From IMG/VR virus record IMGVR_UViG_3300044709_000179, positions 1 through 64,000 of that record: a stretch of 64,000 bases of DNA. One strand, given 5' to 3'. A program made the position numbers and the translations under genes. Of this stretch, positions 4,956 through 41,460 are shown piece after piece. Positions within the stretch are counted from its first letter, which is position 1, and each line of letters starts with the position of its first letter. Below the pieces are notes generated by a model. The model was not told where the DNA came from. It was given only the letters and a program-made list of their open reading frames with translations, and ran no database searches. This DNA is from a virus. Lineage: Duplodnaviria > Caudoviricetes.

Positions 4956-5579
4956 CTAGCCGAACCGCCGCTTGACCTCCCCGGCCAGCCGCTCCTCGTA
5001 CGGGGCGATGATGTGCTCGACAAGCGTGGTCACCCGTACCCGCTCCTCGTCGGTGAGCGGCGAATCGTCGCCCACCGCGGCGTCGACCAGCAGGGCGAGC
5101 GTGGCCAGTCGGCGGCCTTCCAGTCCGGCGATCGGGTCGGCCGCCGCCAGCAAGTCCGTCTCGGCCACGTTGAGCAGCGGGGCGAGCCGGCGCAGCACGT
5201 CGGGGCGCGGGTTGGGCTCGTAGATGGCGCGGTGGACGGCCTTCGGGTCCAGGTCGGCGGCCTCGGCGAGGGTGCTCGGGGTGAGGTTGGCGTCGCGGAT
5301 GAGGCGCAGCAGGTGGAAGCCGAACTCGGTGGGTTGGCGACGGTGCTGCTCGGGGACGGGTATGCCGTTGAGGATGGCGTCTACGGTGCCGGGGGGCCAC
5401 TGGAGGGCGCGTTCTAGGCGGACGAGCAGCGACGCACGGTAACTCGTGCGCTGGCCGCGCTCGATGTCGCCGAGAGTCCGCGAGCCCAGATCATTCGCCT
5501 CGGCGAAACTGTCGCGACTGTCGTGGCCCAACTCGACTCGGCGCGCGACAACGGCACGTGCGAGCGCTGGCCAGTCCAC
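4956..5579 (-). CDS. Immunity repressor with two tandem XRE-type HTH domains
   Basis: RRVELG.SRDSFAE...TLGDIERG..RLERALQWPPG and second HTH LTPSTLAEAADLDPKAV..RRLAPLLNV; divergent from Cro. Confidence 0.8.
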   Translation of the reverse strand: MDWPALARAVVARRVELGHDSRDSFAEANDLGSRTLGDIERGQRTSYRASLLVRLERALQWPPGTVDAILNGIPVPEQHRRQPTEFGFHLLRLIRDANLTPSTLAEAADLDPKAVHRAIYEPNPRPDVLRRLAPLLNVAETDLLAAADPIAGLEGRRLATLALLVDAAVGDDSPLTDEERVRVTTLVEHIIAPYEERLAGEVKRRFG

Positions 5580-5674
5580 GACGCCATCTTGCCACTTTCT
5601 GCCTGTAGTTGCGTACCCACATCTATGCGGCGTGTCAGTTGCCTATCTGCCGGTTTCTGCCTAGACTTGCACGT
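5580..5674. promoter_or_regulatory. Divergent repressor/Cro promoter-operator region
   Basis: TTTCTGCCT twice, several TTGCC; TAGACT -10 before Cro ATG. Confidence 0.6.
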
Positions 5675-5923
5675 ATGCGCCAGCAACGAATTACCGTGAA
5701 CGGGGGCGCGATTCGCGCTCTACGCGACGCCCTGGGCTGGAACCTCGTGCAGTTCTCCGAGGCGGTCGGCGTCCACAACAGCTACATGAGCCGCGTCGAG
5801 AACGGGCTGCGGCAGCCCTCGTTCGAGGTGCGCCGGCGCATCGCCGCAACTCTCGGCGTGCCAGTCGGCGTCATCACCCGCGAGGTGATCCCGGAGTCGA
5901 CCGAACTGCCGCAAGCAGCCTGA
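5675..5923 (+). CDS. Cro-like XRE HTH regulator
   Basis: IRALRDALGW..QFSEAVGV..SYMSRVENG.RQPS. Confidence 0.85.
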   Translation: MRQQRITVNGGAIRALRDALGWNLVQFSEAVGVHNSYMSRVENGLRQPSFEVRRRIAATLGVPVGVITREVIPESTELPQAA

Positions 5924-6000
5924 CCCCCTGAACGCATCAGGCCCGGCGCGACTGTCCCACCGCCACCGGGCCTCTGATCGGACCAGGAGGTCCAACCGCA

Positions 6001-6081
6001 ATGCTCCATGTCCATGGTAGGGCGAACCGGCGCAAGAACGCGAGATGCTTCGGCATCCTTCCGTCCCGGGGTGCACAGTGA
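6001..6081 (+). CDS. Putative 26-aa leader peptide translationally coupled to replication initiator
   Basis: AGGAGG RBS at 5985; TGA 6079-6081 overlaps GTG 6078. Confidence 0.45.
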   Translation: MLHVHGRANRRKNARCFGILPSRGAQ

Positions 6082-7130
6082 CGGCCCCCGAAGTCGTCCG
6101 CATCGGACGATTTGAGTGGGAGCGACTCATGCTCGCCTCGGACCTGCCCTTCGCCACAAAGGGCATCCTGCTGACGCTCGGTACCTTCATGAGCCCCGAT
6201 GGTGCCGACTGTCGACCAGGGCGCGAGAACCTGATGCAGATCACCGAACGAGGCAAGACGACGCTCTACACGTCGATCAAGTCGGCCATCGATGCCGGCT
6301 ACCTGACCGAGGTCGAGCGAGGCGGATTCCGCAAGGTCGGAAACCGTGCGTCCGAGTATGCAGCCGTCGTCCCGAAGGTCATCTTCAACCACCGCGCGGA
6401 GATCATCGCTGCGATGTTCAGCCGCCGACGGGACGCACGAACGTTCAGTGAGCTGAACCTTGGTGACGCCGAACCAGCGGACGAAGGTTCAGCCGACCGA
6501 ACGTTGGTGAATCACGAAGGTTCAACCAGCCGAACGTTCGTCAGTCACGAAGGTTCAGTTTCGGCGCACGAAGGTTCAGTTTTGAGCCACGAAGGTTCAG
6601 CCCACCGAACCCCACCAAACACCTACACCAACCACCCCCACCAACGGCGCATGATCCACGCGAAAACGTCACCGTCTCGATCAACCCAGGGGGAGGGGGT
6701 CGATCGGAGCCAAAACCAGGACGCCGACGAGGCGTACGTAGCCGAGATCCTTAAGCACCGACCGGACTGGTCATCCCGGCGAATCTTTGAGGCCGTACAA
6801 CGCGCGGTCAAAGACGGCCGGGATGAAGCCCAGGCACGACGGGCGCTGGCATCCCTGGCAATGGGCAAGTACGGCGAGACGCAGGTTCCCGGCAGGCTCC
6901 TTGGCGACGGGCCCTGGTGGATGGATGCGGCCTCCCCACCGCGCGCCGTGGCCGACGATCGCTGCCCACGGCACCCCAACCGGCGCGCCGCCACATGCGG
7001 ACTATGTCTGCGCGAAAAGCCTGAGTGTCCGCATGGACAGGCTGGCGGTGCCGAACTTGCGCCGACGACGGACCTGCCCCGGTGCCCGTTCTGCCGTCGC
7101 GCCGCGCTGCGCTTGGTGGAGGCGGCATGA
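6078..7130 (+). CDS. Replication initiator (lambda O-like, N-terminal wHTH, internal iterons)
   Basis: N-terminal HTH, internal DNA repeats, followed by DnaB. Confidence 0.75.
   Translation: MTAPEVVRIGRFEWERLMLASDLPFATKGILLTLGTFMSPDGADCRPGRENLMQITERGKTTLYTSIKSAIDAGYLTEVERGGFRKVGNRASEYAAVVPKVIFNHRAEIIAAMFSRRRDARTFSELNLGDAEPADEGSADRTLVNHEGSTSRTFVSHEGSVSAHEGSVLSHEGSAHRTPPNTYTNHPHQRRMIHAKTSPSRSTQGEGVDRSQNQDADEAYVAEILKHRPDWSSRRIFEAVQRAVKDGRDEAQARRALASLAMGKYGETQVPGRLLGDGPWWMDAASPPRAVADDRCPRHPNRRAATCGLCLREKPECPHGQAGGAELAPTTDLPRCPFCRRAALRLVEAA
6437..6599 (+). repeat. Iterons ACGAAGGTTCA x5 (+1 degenerate direct, +1 degenerate inverted): probable origin
   Basis: Exact copies at 6481, 6514, 6547, 6568, 6589. 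Confidence 0.85.
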
Positions 7131-8479
7131 GCGAGCCTGCGGCGGTTCGCCCAACCGTCGACCCGGTTGCCGAACAGGTCGTGCTCAGCGGCATGCTGCT
7201 GTCAGACGCGGTCGCCGACCAGGTCTCTGGGACGCTCACCGCCGACGACTTTGCCGGTCCGGCCAACGCTGAGATCTTCGCCGCCATCGTGCGCGCACTG
7301 ATGCTCGGCGAGCCCACCAGCGTCGAAGGGATCGGCTCTGCGCTGCATGCAACTGGACGACTCGCCACCGGGCCGGTCGCCGAAGCTGGCGGCGGCGCTT
7401 ACCTAGAGTCTCTGGCGACCAGGGCGGACATTCCGACCGACGCGGTGTGGAGCGCGCAGAAGGTCCGTGAGTACGCCCAGTTGCGCCGGATGGACGCCGC
7501 ACTGGTCCGCGCGCATCTCGCTGTACGCACCCCCGGCGCGAGCGTTGCCGACGTTGCGGAGCAGGTTCAGCGGGCCGTCGTGGACGCCACGGCCGATTCA
7601 ACCGCCGACGACGGCCTGAAGCCAGCATCCGATGTGGTCTGGGATGTCATCGAGCGCATCGAGAATGTCGCGCTGGGGAAGACCCCGTCCGGCCTGACTT
7701 CCGGCCTCGGCTCGCTCGACGAGGTCACAGGCAAGTGGCAGCGAGGGCAACTGATTGTGCCGGCCGGCCGACCCGGCATGGGCAAGACGGTCGCAGCAAT
7801 GGGGTTCGTCAAGGCGTGTGTTCGAGCCGGACTGCCGGCGTTGTTCTTCTCGACGGAGATGCTGGCCGGGGAACTGCACATGCGGCTGCTTGCCGACGTC
7901 GGGAGCATCAACCACGAGAAGCTTCGCCGCGGGCTTATCGACGACGAGGACCGGGCGAGGCTCGGCGCCGCCGCGACCCTCATCGCGCAGTGGCCGCTGT
8001 ACGTCACGCACTCGGTGCACGACACGGCCACCATTCGTGCCGCATCGCGTCGGTTCCGCCAGCAGCACGGCGATCTCGGCATGGTGGCCGTGGACTACGT
8101 GCAGCGGCTGCGACCGACCCAAAAGTTCGACCGGAACGACCTGGAGATCGGGCAGCACGCCCGCGACCTGAAGTGGCTAGCCGTCGACCTTGAGACGGTC
8201 GTGGTCGCGGTGTGCCAGTTGAACCGCAACACCGAAGGCCGCTCCGACAAGCGGCCGGCCTTGTCCGACCTGCGCGGCTCCGGCGAACTGGAGCAGGAGG
8301 CTGACTTGGTGATCCTGCTGCACCGTGAAGACGCCTACGACCCCGAGTCACCGAAGGCGGGCGAGGCCGAGTTCATCGTGGCCAAGAACCGCGCTGGCCG
8401 CTGCGAGACGGTGGACGTGGCAGCCCAACTCCATCTGTGCCGTTTCTCCGACATGGGAATCGACGACCCTACCTCCTGA
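7127..8479 (+). CDS. dnaB: Replicative DNA helicase DnaB-like
   Basis: GRPGMGKT Walker A, FSTEM, VDYVQ, QLNR, DLRGSGELEQEAD, AKNRAG. Confidence 0.95.
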   Translation: MSEPAAVRPTVDPVAEQVVLSGMLLSDAVADQVSGTLTADDFAGPANAEIFAAIVRALMLGEPTSVEGIGSALHATGRLATGPVAEAGGGAYLESLATRADIPTDAVWSAQKVREYAQLRRMDAALVRAHLAVRTPGASVADVAEQVQRAVVDATADSTADDGLKPASDVVWDVIERIENVALGKTPSGLTSGLGSLDEVTGKWQRGQLIVPAGRPGMGKTVAAMGFVKACVRAGLPALFFSTEMLAGELHMRLLADVGSINHEKLRRGLIDDEDRARLGAAATLIAQWPLYVTHSVHDTATIRAASRRFRQQHGDLGMVAVDYVQRLRPTQKFDRNDLEIGQHARDLKWLAVDLETVVVAVCQLNRNTEGRSDKRPALSDLRGSGELEQEADLVILLHREDAYDPESPKAGEAEFIVAKNRAGRCETVDVAAQLHLCRFSDMGIDDPTS

Positions 8480-12187: not shown

Positions 12188-13027
12188 TTATGCGGCCAGT
12201 TGCTGGCCCCGCGCCCGCTGAAACAGGCAGCACTCCATGTTGCCGCACCAGTGGCCCGCGAGTTCGCCGAGCTGCTTGGCGTGGATCTCCAGTTCCGCCT
12301 TCATCTCTGCCAACTGGTGGTGCACCAGCGCCATTTGATCAGGGGAGACGTCGGGGTTCGGTGGCCGTCCGGGTTCGTTGGGCGAATCGTTAAGCGTCCT
12401 TACGACCGAGCCCTTGCCCTGAAAACTGGTGACCAAGCCTTGGCTGCGCAGTTCGGCAACGACGCGGCGGGCCATGGCGACGTCGACCTGATATTGCTTC
12501 TGCATCTCGGTCAGGGACGGCAGCCACGTGCCAGCGGCCAGTTCGCCGGAGTAGATCTGCGCGGCAATGGTGGCCGCGATTGCTCGAAACGTTGGTAGTG
12601 GCTTGCTGTAGGCCAGGACTTTCGGAATGGGGGTCGGCTCGGGATCTTCAATGAGCCCGCCAAAGAGGTCCACCTGGCCGTAGGGGTCCTCGCCACGACA
12701 AACCAGTTCGACTAAGGCGACCGTGGTGTCGAAGTCTGCGTCGTAGAAGTACTCACGTCGAGCGCGCTCGCCTCGCGAGCTTCGCACCATGAAGTCGATG
12801 ATGGTTGTCTCGTTGCGCGCGAAGCCCAGGTGCGCATCCGATATCCATGCCGCAACCAGCTCGGCGCGAAAGGCAGAGGCATCGCTGATGTGCTGCGCGA
12901 GCCGACTGGCGGGATCGACGGTCTTCCCGACCTTGACCACCTTGCAGTCGAATTCGATGACGTAGAGGTAGCCGAATCCATCAGTAACGGCTGGGCGCGA
13001 GGTCCAGACAGTGGGGTCGATGGTCAC
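12188..13027 (-). CDS. T5orf172/GIY-YIG-like domain fused to GntR wHTH
   Basis: YLYVI..VKVGKT.DP..RL..H..EYF; C-term I.SGEL.AG..LPS..E...Y.V...ARR...L...GLV...GKG. Confidence 0.75.
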   Translation of the reverse strand: MTIDPTVWTSRPAVTDGFGYLYVIEFDCKVVKVGKTVDPASRLAQHISDASAFRAELVAAWISDAHLGFARNETTIIDFMVRSSRGERARREYFYDADFDTTVALVELVCRGEDPYGQVDLFGGLIEDPEPTPIPKVLAYSKPLPTFRAIAATIAAQIYSGELAAGTWLPSLTEMQKQYQVDVAMARRVVAELRSQGLVTSFQGKGSVVRTLNDSPNEPGRPPNPDVSPDQMALVHHQLAEMKAELEIHAKQLGELAGHWCGNMECCLFQRARGQQLAA

Positions 13028-19667: not shown

Positions 19668-21391
19668 CCCGCCGGCGGCCCAAGCCTCTGCGTCCTGCCG
19701 CAGTGTTCGCGCTATGGGTGGGTCTGCTGCTGCTCGCGGCGGCCACCAACTGGGCGGCGCCGGTCGTCGCGTTCGTCGTCGCCTACGCCTGCTGGGCCAA
19801 CTTTCGCCGCCGCGTCAACGCGACCGTCGTGCACTTCGGTCAGCGTGTGCTGGAGTCGCCACGGGCGGCCCGGACCGTGTACCTGGTGACCGGGATTGAC
19901 CGTCGGCCTGAGCGTCCGGCGCTGCCCGCGACGGCGCGGCCGGCAGAAATCGTCAAAATCCGTCCAACTGCCGAGCGGGTCGCCGCGGCGCCGGTTCACG
20001 TACCGCAGGCAGTCGACATGGCCACCGCCCGGACCGCGGCCAAGTTGCGGGCCATGTTCGCCGAGCGCGGCGTGGACGCGACGGTGGTCGGGTTCACGCA
20101 GGGCCCGTCGGTGACCCAGTTCGCGGTAGAGAAAGGCGTCGGCACGACGGTCGACGCGATCCTGAAACTGTCGAAGGAAATCGCCTACGCGGTCGGGACC
20201 GCCGACGTGCGCATGGTGTCACCGATCCCTGGCCGTTCGGCGATCGGCATCGAACTGCCCAACGAGGCGCGCCGCACCGTTCGGCTCGCCGACGTGCTGG
20301 CCTCGCCGGAGGCGCGAGGCAACGACGCACCACTCCTGGTGGGGCTTGGCGAGGACATGGAGGGCCGCCACGTGGTGGCCGACCTCGCGAAGGGACCGCA
20401 CACGCTGGTCGGCGGTGTCACCGGTTCGGGCAAGTCGGTGTTTCTCAACGTGGCGCTGGTGTCGATCCTGCGGCGCACCACCCCCGATCAGGTGCGACTT
20501 CTGCTGGTCGACCCGAAGCGGGTCGAACTGGCCGCCTACAAGGACATCCCCCATTTGGTCGTGCCGATCGTCAACGATCCGTCGAGGGCGGTGGACGCGT
20601 TCGCCTGGACGGTCCGGGAAATGGAGTCCCGCTACGACCGGTTCGCCGAGGTCGGCGCACGCAACTTGGACGAGTACAACAAGTGGGCCCGCAAGAACGG
20701 TGAGACGCCGATGCCCAGCCTGCTCGTCGTGGTCGACGAGTTGGCGACTCTGATGATGGTGGCGAAGCAGCGCCGCGACGCCGCGAAGCGCGCCGCCACC
20801 GACGAGCTCCCCGACGACCCCGAGCAGGTGACCGCCCGCCTCGGCGCCGAGGGGCGTGCCGCTGGCATTCACCTGCTGCTGGCCACGCAGCGGCCCGACG
20901 CAACCGTCGTCACGGGCCTGATCAAGGCGAACGTGCCGGCACGGCTGGCGTTCGCCGTCTCTGATGCCGTCAACTCGCGGATCATCCTCGACCAGAACGG
21001 CGCTGAGGCACTGTACGGCGCGGGCGACGCACTGTTTCTGCCGCAGGGGGCCTCGACGCCGATCCGGCTGCAGGGTTCCTGGGTCGACGAGCAGGAGATC
21101 GCTGAGGCGGTTCGTCATGCGAAGGCATGGGGTCCGCCCCAGTTCCGCGACGACGTGCTCACCCCCGCCCCCGCACCGCGCGCGACACCGCAGGTCACGG
21201 TTTCGGCCGCCGACCTGCAGCAGGCTCGTGCGCTGGTGGTCGAGAAGCGGTCGGCGTCGGTGTCGATGCTGCAGCGCCAGATGCAGATCGGCTTTCCGAA
21301 GGCGGCGCGGTTGTTGGACGCGCTGGAGGCGGCCGGCGCCGTCGGCCCGGCCCGCGGTTCGAAGCCGCGTGAGGTCCTCGTCAAGGAGTAG
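19664..21391 (+). CDS. ftsK: FtsK/SpoIIIE DNA translocase (TraB-like) with gamma domain
   Basis: 2 TM, alpha domain, GVTGSGKS, VDPKRVEL, VVDEL, LATQRP, ASVSMLQR..IGF.KAARL. Confidence 0.93.
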   Translation: MTRRRPKPLRPAAVFALWVGLLLLAAATNWAAPVVAFVVAYACWANFRRRVNATVVHFGQRVLESPRAARTVYLVTGIDRRPERPALPATARPAEIVKIRPTAERVAAAPVHVPQAVDMATARTAAKLRAMFAERGVDATVVGFTQGPSVTQFAVEKGVGTTVDAILKLSKEIAYAVGTADVRMVSPIPGRSAIGIELPNEARRTVRLADVLASPEARGNDAPLLVGLGEDMEGRHVVADLAKGPHTLVGGVTGSGKSVFLNVALVSILRRTTPDQVRLLLVDPKRVELAAYKDIPHLVVPIVNDPSRAVDAFAWTVREMESRYDRFAEVGARNLDEYNKWARKNGETPMPSLLVVVDELATLMMVAKQRRDAAKRAATDELPDDPEQVTARLGAEGRAAGIHLLLATQRPDATVVTGLIKANVPARLAFAVSDAVNSRIILDQNGAEALYGAGDALFLPQGASTPIRLQGSWVDEQEIAEAVRHAKAWGPPQFRDDVLTPAPAPRATPQVTVSAADLQQARALVVEKRSASVSMLQRQMQIGFPKAARLLDALEAAGAVGPARGSKPREVLVKE

Positions 21392-27378: not shown

Positions 27379-27428
27379 AAAAACGCGCTCCGCCCGGTCC
27401 GAAGACCAAGGGCGGAGCGCTTCTCGTT
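27379..27428. terminator. Bidirectional intrinsic terminator
   Basis: GCGCTCCGCCC/GGGCGGAGCGC stem, A5 on left, T-rich on right, between convergent genes. Confidence 0.75.
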
Positions 27429-27614
27429 GGTCGGCCCCGTTCGCAGCGGGGCCGCACCGTCAGTCTACCGAACCACAACCACCGCCGATCCGATCGTCGT
27501 CGTCTGGCCGGTGCCCGACGGGCTCACGTACACCCAGCCGAGCGTCGAGGTGCTGCTGGTGGTGTGGGCCGGTTGCGGCTCTCTGGGTGGCTCCGCGGGC
27601 CGCGACTGCGGTCT

Positions 27615-28028
27615 TCACGGCAGTTCCACGTCGCGCACATCCCGGGTCGCCGTGGTCGGCATGGCCCCAGAGGCACTGCGGGACGCCATCTGCCCGACCG
27701 TTGACCGGCTGGGCGCCGCGCCGGCGAACACCATCAGCGCGGCCAGCGCCAGCGCTGACATGTCCGCCGATCCGATGCCGTCCACGATCAGCGACGTGGC
27801 CAGTTGCAGTGATGCTAGGGCGGCGATCACCACGGTTTTTGCGATCGGCCATTGCGGCACGCTGGGGATGGCGTACACGAGCACCGCGTTGCAGACCGCG
27901 ATGGCGATCTGTACGCCCTCCACGTTGGTGATGCGGCCCCCGGTGGCCGAGTCGGACAGGGCGGCCTGGACGGCGGTGACGATCAGGACCAGGGCTGCGG
28001 CGATGGACTTGCCGTACTTGGACCACAT
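27615..28028 (-). CDS. Holin-like 4-TM membrane protein
   Basis: KY.K.I.AA, internally repeated TM pairs with D-x3-IT/DG-I..A motifs. Confidence 0.65.
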   Translation of the reverse strand: MWSKYGKSIAAALVLIVTAVQAALSDSATGGRITNVEGVQIAIAVCNAVLVYAIPSVPQWPIAKTVVIAALASLQLATSLIVDGIGSADMSALALAALMVFAGAAPSRSTVGQMASRSASGAMPTTATRDVRDVELP

Positions 28029-28114
28029 GGGCTACTCCTTGGGGTTCAGGGTTTCAGCCGGCTCCGTGAATGCGGTCCGGCGATGTTCAGGGGTTCAGGT
28101 GCGATGATCTGGGC

Positions 28115-30696: not shown

Positions 30697-32054
30697 TGCC
30701 GGTAGACTGGAGGCATTCCCCGAGCCACCGCGAGGCAACGTGAACGAAGGTAGCCGCCCTGTCGGCGAGGCTGCTGAATGCTGACCGGCCGCCGCTACCT
30801 GCTCTCGTTCACCAACGAGCAGGCCGACTACGCCGAAACCGTCGGCAACGCCTGTCGCGCCGCGTGGAACACTGCACTGGAGCAGCGCCGTGAGTACCGG
30901 CGGCGCGGCGCGTTCATCTCATATGTGGAGCAATCCCGGCAGCTAGCCGAGGCCAAGAAGGACCCATTTTGCGCCTGGCTAGCCGATGTGCCGCACTGTG
31001 CACTACAGCAGACCCTTCGAGACCTTGAGCGCACCTGCAAGGCACACGGAACGTGGAAGGCGCGCTGGCGGTCCAAGGTGCGCACCGCCCCATCGTTCCG
31101 GTTTCCTGATCCCGCGAAACTCGCGGTGCGTCGCCTGAATCGCCGTTGGGCTGAGGCTCGTCTGCCGAAGTTCGGCTGGGTTCGCTTCCGCTGGACTCGC
31201 CCGCTCGGCGGCACGATCCGCAACGCCACAGTCTCCCGCGACGGCGGACGCTGGTACATAGCGTTCTGCGTCGAGGATGGCGTGGTCGAGGTTGCCCCCA
31301 ACGGCAGGCCCGCAGTTGGGGTCGACCGAGGTGTCGTGACTGCGGTTACCACATCTGACGGCGAAATGTTCGACCGCGGGTCGATGACCACCGGCGAGGC
31401 AAAGCGTCTGAAGCGACTCCAGCAGCAGTTCGCGCGTCAGGAGAACAAGCGGTCCAGCCGTCGCAAGGCTACGCGCGGCGAACTGGCTGTACTCAACGCC
31501 CGAATTCGAGCGCGCCGGGCCGACTTCGCCGCACAGACCGCCGTTCGATTGATCCGTAACTACGGCCTGATCGCCGTCGAGGATCTGCGGGTGAAGAGCA
31601 TGGCGGCTAGTGCAAGGGGCACCGTCGAGAGGCCCGGCAAGAACGTGCGGCAGAAGGCCGGGCTCAACCGCGCGATCCTTAACAAGGGCTGGGGCGGTTT
31701 CCTACTCAAGCTCGAACGCGCCGCCCGCTACCACGGCGCGACGGTGGTCAAGGTCCCACCCGCGTACACGTCGCAGACCTGTTACGCCTGCAAGCATGTG
31801 GATCCGAAGTCCCGCGAGAGCCAAGCGGTCTTCAGGTGCACGGCCTGCGGGCATCAGGACCACGCCGACGTGAACGCGGCGAAGAACATCCGTGAGCGAG
31901 GGATTGAACTCGCTTCCGCCGCAGGGCTTGCGGTGGCAGGGCGTGGAGACCTCGGCGTTGGCCGGTCCGCGAAGCGCCAACCACCCGTGAAGGTCGCAGC
32001 ATGAACGCGGCCGATGGGCGGGAATCCTCGTGGCACCCGCGAGGTGGAGGTCAA
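30686..32054 (+). mobile_element. Non-autonomous IS200/IS605 (IS1341-type) element, tnpB only
   Basis: Right-end hairpin 32026-32044 then GGAGGTCAA; degenerate related hairpin ~30715-30735; no tnpA; left boundary uncertain. Confidence 0.7.
30778..32004 (+). CDS. tnpB: RNA-guided endonuclease TnpB
   Basis: VGVDRGV, IAVEDL, TSQTC..C, CTACG...HADVNAA; all three RuvC acidic residues present. Confidence 0.95.
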   Translation: MLTGRRYLLSFTNEQADYAETVGNACRAAWNTALEQRREYRRRGAFISYVEQSRQLAEAKKDPFCAWLADVPHCALQQTLRDLERTCKAHGTWKARWRSKVRTAPSFRFPDPAKLAVRRLNRRWAEARLPKFGWVRFRWTRPLGGTIRNATVSRDGGRWYIAFCVEDGVVEVAPNGRPAVGVDRGVVTAVTTSDGEMFDRGSMTTGEAKRLKRLQQQFARQENKRSSRRKATRGELAVLNARIRARRADFAAQTAVRLIRNYGLIAVEDLRVKSMAASARGTVERPGKNVRQKAGLNRAILNKGWGGFLLKLERAARYHGATVVKVPPAYTSQTCYACKHVDPKSRESQAVFRCTACGHQDHADVNAAKNIRERGIELASAAGLAVAGRGDLGVGRSAKRQPPVKVAA

Positions 32055-33363: not shown

Positions 33364-33744
33364 CTAGTCGCGCTCCCGCCGCCACCGCGCCCACTCGCTG
33401 ATCCGCCGCACCTGCTCCAGAATTAGCTCTTTCGCGCGCTCGTCGGCCAGGTCGTACTCGTCGGCGAGGTTGTCGAACGCGGCCGGCAGCGGCTTGGGTG
33501 GCGGGCGGTCCTCGGTGCCGAAGGCGGCGGCGAACAGGTCGGCCTCCTCGACACGAAGGTGGGGGGCTGCGCGCAGGAGGAGTGGGGCCGTGGGCTCCGT
33601 GGTGCCCGAGATCCACCGGAGGACGACGGACGGCTGCATGCCAGCCGCGCGGGCGAACGCCGTGGGCGAGCGGTAGCCGGCCGCCTCGATGGCGGCGACC
33701 ACGTAGTGCCCGAACTCCCCGGACGGCGCTCCGCCTTTGCCCAC
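33364..33744 (-). CDS. Second XRE-family repressor
   Basis: SPTAFARAAGMQPSVVLRWISG..EP; leaderless TACTGT promoter. Confidence 0.8.
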   Translation of the reverse strand: MGKGGAPSGEFGHYVVAAIEAAGYRSPTAFARAAGMQPSVVLRWISGTTEPTAPLLLRAAPHLRVEEADLFAAAFGTEDRPPPKPLPAAFDNLADEYDLADERAKELILEQVRRISEWARWRRERD

Positions 33745-33837
33745 GAGCCAACAGTAAGGGACTACCGAGCGAAACCGGTCACTCGTCGGATCGTGCGTGT
33801 CTTAGCTTTCAGGCCAATGAACTGGTAGCATGTGAGC

Positions 33838-34101
33838 ATGCAGACTTACGCACCACGACGACGCCGAGGCATCGAGGTGCGGCCCAGTGAAGTTCGGCGC
33901 CGAGGTCGCGAACGCTTCGGCGTCCAGACCGACCGCGCGCTTGCCGAACGCCTCGGCTTCCATCCGGTCAACCTGTCGAAGCTGTTTCACGGCCAGCAGC
34001 CGAGCGGCATCGTCATCGCGACCCTGCTCGACGCGCTCGACGCCAAGTTCGAAGACCTGTTCCTGATCGTGCCGTTGAAGTCGGAGGCGGCGAGCCCCTG
34101 A
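33838..34101 (+). CDS. Second Cro-like HTH regulator
   Basis: TDRALAERLG....LSKL..GQQPS..FEDLF; TAGCAT-6nt-ATG. Confidence 0.8.
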   Translation: MQTYAPRRRRGIEVRPSEVRRRGRERFGVQTDRALAERLGFHPVNLSKLFHGQQPSGIVIATLLDALDAKFEDLFLIVPLKSEAASP

Positions 34102-34177
34102 GATGCATCAGGCCCGGTGGCGTTGGCGCGCCAACCGGGCCCCTGTGAACCACCCAGCCGTAGGAGGTCCGACCGCA

Positions 34178-34264
34178 ATGCCTCGTGGTTTCCATGCTAA
34201 CGCATGCAGTCGCGTCGTGGCACGCAAGCCATCGCGCAACCGCAGCCATCGGGACGCGGCGTGA
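34178..34264 (+). CDS. Putative 28-aa leader peptide coupled to AAA_25 helicase
   Basis: AGGAGG RBS at 34162; TGA overlaps GTG 34261. Confidence 0.45.
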   Translation: MPRGFHANACSRVVARKPSRNRSHRDAA

Positions 34265-35340
34265 CTGACGTCCACAAGCCCAACTTCGACCCGAGCCTTT
34301 GGGCCGCCTACGAAGCTGGCGCCGGTCAGGAGCCTCCGGGCGGCAACGGTAACGGCAAGGTCGTGAGCATTGCTGACGCAGCGGCGTCGCGGGCCGCCCG
34401 GATCAGGCGCCTCACGTATCGACGGTCCGAACTCGACAACATCCCGCCGCCGAGCTATCTCATCGACGGCGTCCTCAACGACAACGTCCTTGCCCTACTC
34501 GCGGGCAAGTTCGGCACCTACAAGTCGTTCGTGTCCGTGTCGTGGGCGTGCTCGGTCGCCACCGGAAAGCCGTGGTTCGGCCACGACATCGTCAAGCCCG
34601 GCCCAATCGTCTACATCGCCGCCGAGGGCGCATCCGGCCTGAAGCAGCGCACGGAGGCATGGGAGAGCGTCTACAACCGCGGCCAGCGCATCCCCGACGA
34701 TCGGTTCATTGTCGTCGGAGGCTCGGTCCGGTTGACCCTCGGCGGCGACATGGACGCGATCAGCGAACTGTGCGCCGAGGTGAAGCCGGTCTTGCTCATC
34801 TGGGACACCCTGCACCGCTGCGCGCCCGGCGTGGAGGAGAACTCCAACACCGAGATGGGCATGGTCGTCGCGGCGATGGACCGCCTGCGCGAAGCCCATG
34901 CGTGCACGCAGCTCGTCAACCACCACACCGGTCACGCCGGAAAACGTTCGCGCGGCGCGTCGGCGATCGAGGACGACTTCGAGAACTCGTGGGTGATCAA
35001 GCTCCGCGATCCCGAGGACCGGTCGCCCAAGAATCCGCGCACCATGGAGCACCGCAAGTGCAAGGACGACGTACTGCAGGAGCCGATTCCGATCCGGCTG
35101 GCGCTCTGCGACATCTCCGCCACCGTCGAGCGCGATGAGGATCGGGACGAGGACAGCAAGTGGCTCATCGAGGACAAGGCGAAGCGGAAGGCGGCCGAGT
35201 GTGACGCTGCCGGAATTCCGACGGGACTCGGCCGTGATCGGCTGAAACTGGCCGCCCAGCAAGCCGGGATCGCGGGGGTCTCGGACACGCTGTGGGCGCT
35301 GGTCGTCAAGGCCCGAAAGGGGCTGGACCGTGCGGCATGA
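34261..35340 (+). CDS. RepA-like (AAA_25, RecA-fold) replicative helicase
   Basis: GKFGTYKS, YIAAEG, LIWDT, EENSN, HHTG..G..RGASA. Confidence 0.85.
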   Translation: MTDVHKPNFDPSLWAAYEAGAGQEPPGGNGNGKVVSIADAAASRAARIRRLTYRRSELDNIPPPSYLIDGVLNDNVLALLAGKFGTYKSFVSVSWACSVATGKPWFGHDIVKPGPIVYIAAEGASGLKQRTEAWESVYNRGQRIPDDRFIVVGGSVRLTLGGDMDAISELCAEVKPVLLIWDTLHRCAPGVEENSNTEMGMVVAAMDRLREAHACTQLVNHHTGHAGKRSRGASAIEDDFENSWVIKLRDPEDRSPKNPRTMEHRKCKDDVLQEPIPIRLALCDISATVERDEDRDEDSKWLIEDKAKRKAAECDAAGIPTGLGRDRLKLAAQQAGIAGVSDTLWALVVKARKGLDRAA

Positions 35341-35360
35341 CATCGATACCCGCGAGCGCC

Positions 35361-35522
35361 GACCTGTTCCGAACAGGTCAGGACCACAACCTGTACCGGC
35401 GAGATCAGCACAGTTCCCGCATTTCCGCAGGTCAGACCTGTTCCGAACAGGTGCCGGCACAGGTCAGAACAGGCACAAAAACCTGTACTGTACCGGCCCG
35501 CCCCTAGGGGGCGGTACAGGTC
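35361..35522. repeat. Palindromic repeat cluster, candidate origin of second replicon
   Basis: GACCTGTTC-C-GAACAGGT at 35361 and 35435, further ACCTGT/ACAGGT half-sites, CCCCTAGGGG. Confidence 0.7.
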
Positions 35523-35699
35523 GGTTGCCCGCCTCCGGTACGGAGAAGAAGGCAAGGATCAGACCCCTGGCCCGAGCCTCATCCGGTACGTCTCTGACCT
35601 TAGCCACGCCCCACCCGGAGCAAGACCGCAAGCCCAGCCCGCGTTCACAGCCGCACTCCACGCCACGACTGAACCGCCGAGCACCGGAAGGAACCCGCC

Positions 35700-38147: not shown

Positions 38148-38378
38148 CCGCCGAAACGGAAGCCCGCCTCCATCTCCTCGACGCCCTCATCGCCGGAGTC
38201 CACCACCTCGAAGGGGAGGGTGGCGTCGCGGGCTCCTTCCGAGAGGCGTCCGTCAGGCCCCGGGCGATGCCAGTCGCGCCGGGGCCACCCATCTATTTTC
38301 CCAGGTCAAGGCCACAATCGCCAGTCAAAATCCATTCAAGAAAAGCAAAATGTCTTACCGGTCTGGCAGACTCTGGCC

Positions 38379-41328: not shown

Positions 41329-41460
41329 TGCGGGACTCCTCTAGTCAGGCGTTCCGTCAGGCCCCGGGGCGCTCCAACGTCGCCGGGGCCGTCCATCCTC
41401 CCCATTTTCTCACGGTTCCACTCGGCTGCGTACTGCGGAACCGTTCTGCTGCAACGGGTT

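Follow-up and report, generated by a model that had tools for sequence, protein, structure and literature searches.

Two copies of a short control module were found in the genome of a tailed actinomycete phage, each placed between a small Cro-like gene and a replication gene. Each copy is probably a two-layer control cassette for that replication gene, in which a countertranscript would act together with a translationally coupled leader. The repeated module is real and non-random, and appears to represent a known type of mechanism in a new setting, an actinomycete phage. Three independent signals in the sequence (a promoter-like hexamer, the strand asymmetry of a conserved hairpin and a T-rich tail) point to a short minus-strand RNA gene; this putative antisense RNA is well supported in silico.

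Two copies of the module in one phage record

The record analysed (IMGVR_UViG_3300044709_000179) is linear, 118,071 bp long and 97% complete according to CheckV; the window corresponds to its first 64 kb and has a G+C content of ~68%. Protein families characteristic of Streptomyces-like hosts are encoded in the window, including DUF5753/HTH_31, DUF6879, SAV_6107-type HEPN, GntR and an FtsK/TraB-like motor. The early arm carries a GntR-family regulator and a complete FtsK/SpoIIIE motor with alpha, motor and gamma domains (12188-13027 and 19703-21391), a combination that recalls actinomycete conjugative elements. Two divergent CI-like/Cro-like switches lie in the window, both with replication genes after them, and one copy of the module is associated with each of them (modules A and B). 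The features are as follows.

Module A:
4956-5923, divergent CI-like/Cro-like switch
5676-5923, plus strand, Cro-like HTH_3 gene, probably leaderless
5925-6081, module A
5931-6007, minus strand, predicted antisense RNA A, ~77 nt (inferred ends)
5939-5973, minus strand, hairpin I
5985-6004, plus strand, ribosome-site block
6001-6081, plus strand, leader ORF of 26 codons, its TGA overlapping the GTG at 6078
6014-6019, minus strand, -10-like hexamer TACCAT of the predicted antisense promoter
6078-7130, plus strand, gene for an initiator-like protein (HTH_36 match weak, under Pfam's cut-off)
7127-8479, DnaB helicase gene, after the initiator-like gene

Module B:
33364-34101, divergent CI-like/Cro-like switch
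33364-33744, minus strand, divergent CI-like HTH gene (Pfam HTH_3/HTH_31)
33826-33831, plus strand, forward -10-like hexamer, 6 nt before the ATG of the Cro-like gene
33838-34101, plus strand, small Cro-like HTH gene (Pfam HTH_26/HTH_3)
34095-34264, module B
34103-34187, minus strand, predicted antisense RNA B, ~85 nt (both ends inferred)
34111-34141, minus strand, hairpin I, its 8-bp stem continuing as CAG/CTG beyond a 2-nt bulge (predicted fold -26.6 kcal/mol)
34162-34181, plus strand, ribosome-site block made of AGGAGG, a 10-nt spacer and the leader ATG
34178-34264, plus strand, leader ORF of 28 codons, its TGA (34262-34264) overlapping the helicase GTG at 34261
34194-34199, minus strand, -10-like hexamer TAGCAT of the predicted antisense promoter
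34261-35340, plus strand, AAA_25 ATPase gene (359 aa; PF13481, E = 5e-36)
35359-35605, no strand assigned, origin-like cluster of ACCTGT-type palindromes, directly 3' of the AAA_25 helicase gene

The AAA_25 family profile matched the RSF1010 RepA helicase (PDB 1g8y, E = 5.9e-9). Sequence comparison of the two CI-like proteins revealed 40% identity over 65 aa between that of module B and its module A counterpart (4956-5579). The initiator-like gene of module A contains four 33-bp direct repeats (6437-6621), which encode a repeated EGS-type peptide kept in homologues; by analogy with lambda O, these repeats may be iterons located inside the gene. A TnpB gene (IS605 OrfB / Cas12f-like TNB) lies at 30778-32004, 1.4 kb upstream of the module B CI-like gene.

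The initial annotation had described the region in front of the AAA_25 helicase gene as a second copy of a module combining a hairpin, a ribosome site, a leader and an antisense signal. In agreement with this, the module was found exactly twice in the 118-kb record, each copy made of ~160 bases. As the annotation had stated, the 13-mer GCATCAGGCCCGG is identical in both copies (34105-34117 and 5934-5946); these were its only two matches in the window when up to 1 mismatch was allowed, against a mean of 0.30 in shuffled sequences. The 8-mer ACCGGGCC, which forms the 3' stem arm, was present at 34134-34141 and 5965-5972, and the 20-nt ribosome-site blocks were identical at 19/20 positions, again as had been noted. 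Across the whole 118,071-bp record, this 20-nt block had only 2 copies, the next-best matches carrying 5 mismatches. The distance of 10 nt between AGGAGG and ATG is long.

The similarity between A and B is made of four blocks: the 13-mer with the 5' stem arm, the 8-mer of the 3' arm, the 20-mer ribosome-site block and, at leader nt 10-22, a block of 9 nt. They are split by a diverged loop (16 nt in B, 18 nt in A) and a diverged spacer, both of unequal lengths. Comparison of A with B thus upheld the view that the stems and the ribosome-site block are kept, whereas loops and leader peptides differ. No mutual similarity could be detected between the Cro-like proteins flanking the two modules, and the genes located downstream are unrelated to each other, indicating that the similarity is a short island rather than the result of a gene-block duplication.

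The module was also searched for outside the record. The exact ribosome-site block and the whole module had 0 matches in IMG/VR, and the exact block or module had 0 matches in JGI metagenomes. In GTDB genomes, the ribosome-site block gave 15 matches, all of them ordinary ribosome sites in unrelated taxa and about the number expected by chance. No similar DNA was found in GenBank phages and no Rfam match was obtained, even at E values up to 10. A search of IMG/VR with the hairpin pattern of one relative described below (L046) only returned chance matches in coding regions. Relatives of the module A initiator were found as proteins only; these homologues begin with MT.

The 28-codon leader of module B and its overlap with the helicase GTG, both previously annotated, were present as described. 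Leader peptides were not conserved across modules. In the close pair L046/L053, nearly all leader differences were non-synonymous, with the hairpin, ribosome site and start codon kept. The ribosome sites of the replication genes themselves are weak, suggesting that translation of these genes would depend on translation of the leader. The predicted accessibility of the helicase start region gave no discrimination.

Conserved layout and minus-strand signals

A protein search with the AAA_25 helicase identified close relatives at 55-92% identity, and the corresponding DNA was compared for the metagenomic phage loci L003 and L046-L054. The helicases of L046-L053 are orthologous (55-75% amino acid identity), and these 8 loci share the same upstream order: the stop codon of a small gene of DNA-binding type, a hairpin, a Shine-Dalgarno sequence and an ORF of 15-35 codons overlapping the helicase gene. 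A longer upstream ORF was present in L003 and L054, with the same stop/start overlap. The overlap, in the form (A/G)TGA, was found in both window copies and 11/11 close relatives, and the first residue (M or V, most MT) was aligned with the window GTG start in 10/13 homologues. The hairpin begins 5-35 nt past the upstream stop codon; where the upstream gene encodes a Cro-like HTH protein, it ends 6-15 nt ahead of the hairpin. The Shine-Dalgarno sequence of the relatives often lies within a second small hairpin.

The small regulators encoded upstream in these relatives belong to different families; those of L047 and L051 appear ribbon-helix-helix-like by eye and had no Pfam hit. A divergent minus-strand gene was found upstream of the small regulator in every relative with enough flanking sequence. 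Many of the regulator genes have a forward TAnnnT placed 6-7 nt ahead of their start codon and appear to be leaderless; the mRNA of the module B Cro-like gene is probably leaderless as well, given the same layout. A TAnnnT hexamer was seen at this distance from Cro-like gene starts in the window (5640-5678 and 33800-33840) and in L046, L049, L050 and L052, and three of the apparently leaderless Cro-like genes have a TGG extended -10.

More distant primase-helicase relatives (L060, L063/L064, L067 and L078) have no leader ORF. In these loci, a reverse TAnnnT is located in the spacer between ribosome site and start codon, and a hairpin lies 30-50 nt upstream. This arrangement is suggestive of an antisense RNA whose direct target is the ribosome site of the gene itself, and may point to a countertranscript family that is older and more widespread.

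The reverse TAGCAT reported earlier within the module B leader was found in the sequence, and module A has a related hexamer in its own leader. Among 11 modules, 10 contained a reverse-strand TAnnnT at leader nt 7-22, with 0 on the forward strand; 1.68 would be expected on either strand from local composition (binomial p < 2e-6). The modules stem from few independent lineages (~8); when 9 independent lineages were counted, the binomial p was 3e-5. Since the antisense hypothesis came from the two window copies, the relatives provide an independent test: a reverse TAnnnT inside the leader was found in 8/9 further modules, and L048 had its reverse hexamer at +33. Hexamer sequences vary from one lineage to another, and their positions shift by 3 nt, indicating that it is the presence of a hexamer that is conserved rather than an inherited sequence. 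The same type of hexamer precedes the leaderless Cro-like starts by 6-7 nt, which argues that it is a working -10 type in these phages. A scan for sigma-70-type -35/-10 consensus sequences found none on either strand, so the predicted antisense promoter rests on a hexamer with 3 of 6 positions specified. In 6/9 modules (6014-6020, 34194-34200, L046, L049, L050 and L053), a TAG or TAA in the frame of the replication gene also arises from the reverse hexamer, and the codon phase is the same for 8/9 hexamers, so that a further constraint may be involved. The hexamer (10/11) is nonetheless more universal than the in-frame stop (6/9), and L047 and L051 have hexamers without a stop.

The hairpin stems displayed a marked difference between strands. 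They contained 13 A.C juxtapositions on the plus strand, which become G.U pairs in a minus-strand RNA, and 0 plus-strand G.T. Across five alignable modules, 98.4% of cells could pair on the minus-strand RNA versus 84.4% on the plus strand; 5 pairs varied by G.U wobble only and 1 was compensatory. Two stem-loops made up the RNAalifold consensus; in the predicted RNAs, the loop of stem-loop 1 or its immediate vicinity holds the anti-Shine-Dalgarno sequence, and stem-loop 2 corresponds to the conserved hairpin. The 12-nt tail past the stem was T-rich on the minus strand only (T at 45/120 positions versus 20/120 on the plus strand; expected fraction 0.158; p = 8e-9). L048 and L074 had a run of U4-5 in this tail, most hairpins lacked a canonical U-tract, and a terminator scan found no terminator-like site on either strand. 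Taken with the hexamer, the asymmetry and the minus-only tail make an antisense RNA terminator the best interpretation of the hairpin.

The ends of the predicted RNAs were placed 7 nt past the hexamer (5') and 8 nt past the stem (3'). With these rules, the predicted length was constant across modules (72-89 nt), with 32-53 nt between hexamer and hairpin. An unbiased detector combining a hexamer, a hairpin of at least 8 bp and a T-rich tail was run on both strands; it recovered only 12 units in the 236 kb of strand that make up the record, both module copies included, and a unit at the module position in 8/12 close loci. The antisense strand was predicted to fold more stably than the sense strand in 10/10 comparisons (mean difference -8.2 kcal/mol). 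This difference is mostly an effect of G+T composition (r = 0.86; p = 0.05 versus composition-matched controls) and for this reason was not used as main evidence.

Other units and repeats were observed in the window. On the minus strand, the detector also picked out a unit at 27385-27467 that combines the hexamer TAGACT with an 11-bp hairpin and a T5 tail. This unit faces the start of the gene 27427-28107, encoded on the plus strand, which makes it a candidate for another antisense RNA. A weaker unit of hexamer plus hairpin at 34280-34351 on the minus strand, within the first 30 helicase codons, may be due to chance. Two 45-bp direct repeats (38249-38293 and 41353-41397; 76% identical) each form a GC-rich hairpin with a distal T-run and bracket a 3.1-kb segment with mostly minus-strand genes; like the module hairpins, they contain the 8-nt core TCAGGCCC and a stem arm that is almost the same.

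Proposed mechanism and rival explanations

We propose that the sense transcript would start at the leaderless Cro-like gene and carry the strong leader ribosome site past the stop codon of this gene. An antisense promoter, with its -10 hexamer in leader codons 3-8, would direct the synthesis of a ~75-90 nt RNA made of two stem-loops. The 5' part of this RNA would be complementary to the leader start codon and ribosome site, with the anti-Shine-Dalgarno sequence displayed within or beside the loop of stem-loop 1; the conserved hairpin, forming the 3' part, would act as a terminator. Pairing of the antisense RNA with the mRNA would block translation of the leader and hence the synthesis of the helicase or initiator. 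The leader peptide itself would be irrelevant, the link to the replication gene being provided by the overlap between the leader stop codon and the GTG start. The upstream Cro-like gene would add a layer of transcriptional control. The initial annotation had proposed an RNA-level function, with an antisense RNA and a coupled leader. These proposals gained in silico support from the conserved layout, the hexamer, the asymmetry and the tail; the role of the hairpin was refined, its most likely identity being the antisense RNA terminator rather than an element of the sense mRNA.

The main rival explanation, which we consider unlikely, is that the hexamer belongs to a promoter similar to lambda pE (P_RE). 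A long leftward transcript, antisense to the Cro-like gene and sense for the CI-like gene, would then serve the lysogeny decision, and the hairpin would be a leaky attenuator. The divergent minus-strand gene found upstream of the regulator in all relatives with enough flank is compatible with this explanation, and the absence of a strong U-tract from most hairpins would make read-through possible. A stable hairpin of 8-15 bp followed by a T-rich tail, however, was found at a constant 32-53 nt after the hexamer in every module, which fits a short, terminated RNA, and the complementarity that is conserved has its centre at the leader ribosome site. Repeats of activator type were not found beside the hexamer, and the leader ORF is too short and variable to encode a CII-like activator. 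We attach slightly less credence to the proposal that there is no antisense RNA at all, the hairpin and ribosome-site block acting in the sense mRNA (in processing or stability, or by sequestering the ribosome site) and the hexamer being a by-product, for example of an in-frame stop. This proposal could draw on the small second hairpin that can enclose the ribosome site in several modules, on the hexamers overlapping TAG or TAA in the helicase frame (6/9) or sharing one codon phase (8/9), and on the empty promoter consensus scan. It is at odds with a sense stem that has 13 A.C mismatches and no G.U and with a sense tail whose T content is at background; in addition, the hexamers of L047 and L051 contain no stop, and the hexamer is present in 10/11 modules compared with 6/9 for the stop.

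It is very improbable that the similarity between A and B is left over from recombination or gene conversion at a mosaic joint, or that the hairpin functions as DNA, in duplex or single-stranded form, for example as an operator or single-strand initiation site. In favour of these explanations, the similarity forms a short island at a gene boundary between unrelated genes, and single-stranded DNA also tolerates G.T pairs. The identity is nonetheless distributed over four separate blocks instead of one contiguous tract, each block is a functional part of the predicted RNA gene, and the same architecture is built from other sequences in ~10 further phages; as for an operator, duplex DNA would give no strand asymmetry.

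Other identities for the module or its parts were considered and rejected. A sense-strand terminator after cro (tR1-like) was discarded on the basis of the empty terminator scan, the T content of the sense tail (20/120) and the A.C mismatches of the sense stem. A nut/put-like site does not fit loops that differ between copies and a strand asymmetry in the opposite direction. SAS/ESAS repeats of Cluster K mycobacteriophages occur in many copies per genome, upstream of many genes; a start-associated repeat of this type was dismissed, as only two copies exist in the 118-kb record. A leaderless minus-strand ORF was rejected because its start codon is not conserved.

Known control systems and possible cross-regulation

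Replication control by an antisense RNA together with a leader peptide is textbook knowledge for enterobacterial and Gram-positive plasmids. No account of this combination in actinomycete phages emerged from the literature searched. The modules can be compared with the copB-CopA/CopT-tap-repA system of plasmid R1 (IncFII) and the related IncI2 repR/repA system, as outlined in PMC8053102, citing Blomberg et al. 1992. As in R1 and IncI2, a small repressor gene (copB-like, here a Cro-like HTH gene) occupies an upstream position within the operon. Opposite the leader region, these plasmids encode an antisense RNA in cis (~90-108 nt), and such an RNA is predicted here. A short leader ORF, through whose translation control would also be exerted in the phage, has a stop codon that overlaps the replication gene start. 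Unlike R1, the element described here is a tailed actinomycete phage; the controlled gene encodes a RepA(RSF1010)-type helicase or, in module A, an HTH initiator followed by DnaB, and not IncFII RepA; and the regulator is one half of a CI/Cro-type divergent switch. The predicted antisense RNA would also differ in covering the leader ribosome site itself, and no sequence or Rfam similarity to R1 was found.

In pMV158, CopG and the antisense RNAII control repB, and it is the single-stranded 5' tail of RNAII, not its loop, that drives binding (PMC4485353). The modules resemble this system in the small transcriptional repressor gene directly upstream, in the predicted short antisense RNA whose 5' part is complementary to the translation-initiation region and in the intergenic position of the terminator hairpin. 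There is no leader ORF in pMV158, whereas in the window copies the ribosome site of the leader is the predicted target. RNAII is also smaller: its tail measures 17 nt, and it has a single 8-bp hairpin in place of the two stem-loops predicted here. Having no RNA or protein homology to either plasmid system, the module is considered an analogue, and not a member, of the R1/IncFII or pMV158 families.

In lambda, cII is the target of the OOP RNA, whose overlap with the 3' end of this gene spans 52 nt; pE transcripts are long and activator-dependent (PMC5869508). The predicted RNAs share with pO-oop-tO a short leftward transcript with a hairpin terminator, located between the cro side and the replication genes, and with pE a leftward promoter within the first codons of the ORF after cro. 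In contrast to OOP, the RNA would end at the stop codon of the Cro-like gene, only its tail reaching the stop, and would cover a ribosome site.

The blocks shared by A and B map to the -10/start region of the predicted antisense gene, its 5' target-recognition part, both terminator arms and the tail. Over the 20-nt target block, all 20/20 positions of antisense A could pair with target B, including one G.U, and pairing of antisense B with target A left one C.A mismatch. Duplex energies calculated for the heterologous combinations of A with B were -114 and -109 kcal/mol, compared with -190 and -210 kcal/mol for cognate pairs and -52 to -87 kcal/mol for unrelated modules. The shared target block makes cross-regulation between copies A and B plausible, and binding driven by the tail, as in pMV158, would let the two copies cross-react.

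A broader proposal, which we regard as tentative and somewhat doubtful, is that antisense RNAs of shared specificity tie both replication modules together, and that a wider, undescribed family of countertranscripts guards RepA-type helicase genes in phages of actinomycetes and in related elements, whether or not a leader ORF is present. If so, the initiator/DnaB module and the RepA-type helicase module would both be throttled by either antisense RNA. The cassette, if real, would mean that these temperate phages place plasmid-style copy control behind a CI/Cro switch. It would also define a family of small RNA genes to annotate in phages, well suited to the study of cross-talk between two replication modules that share a genome. 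The modules could in addition provide compact regulatory parts for Streptomyces genetics.
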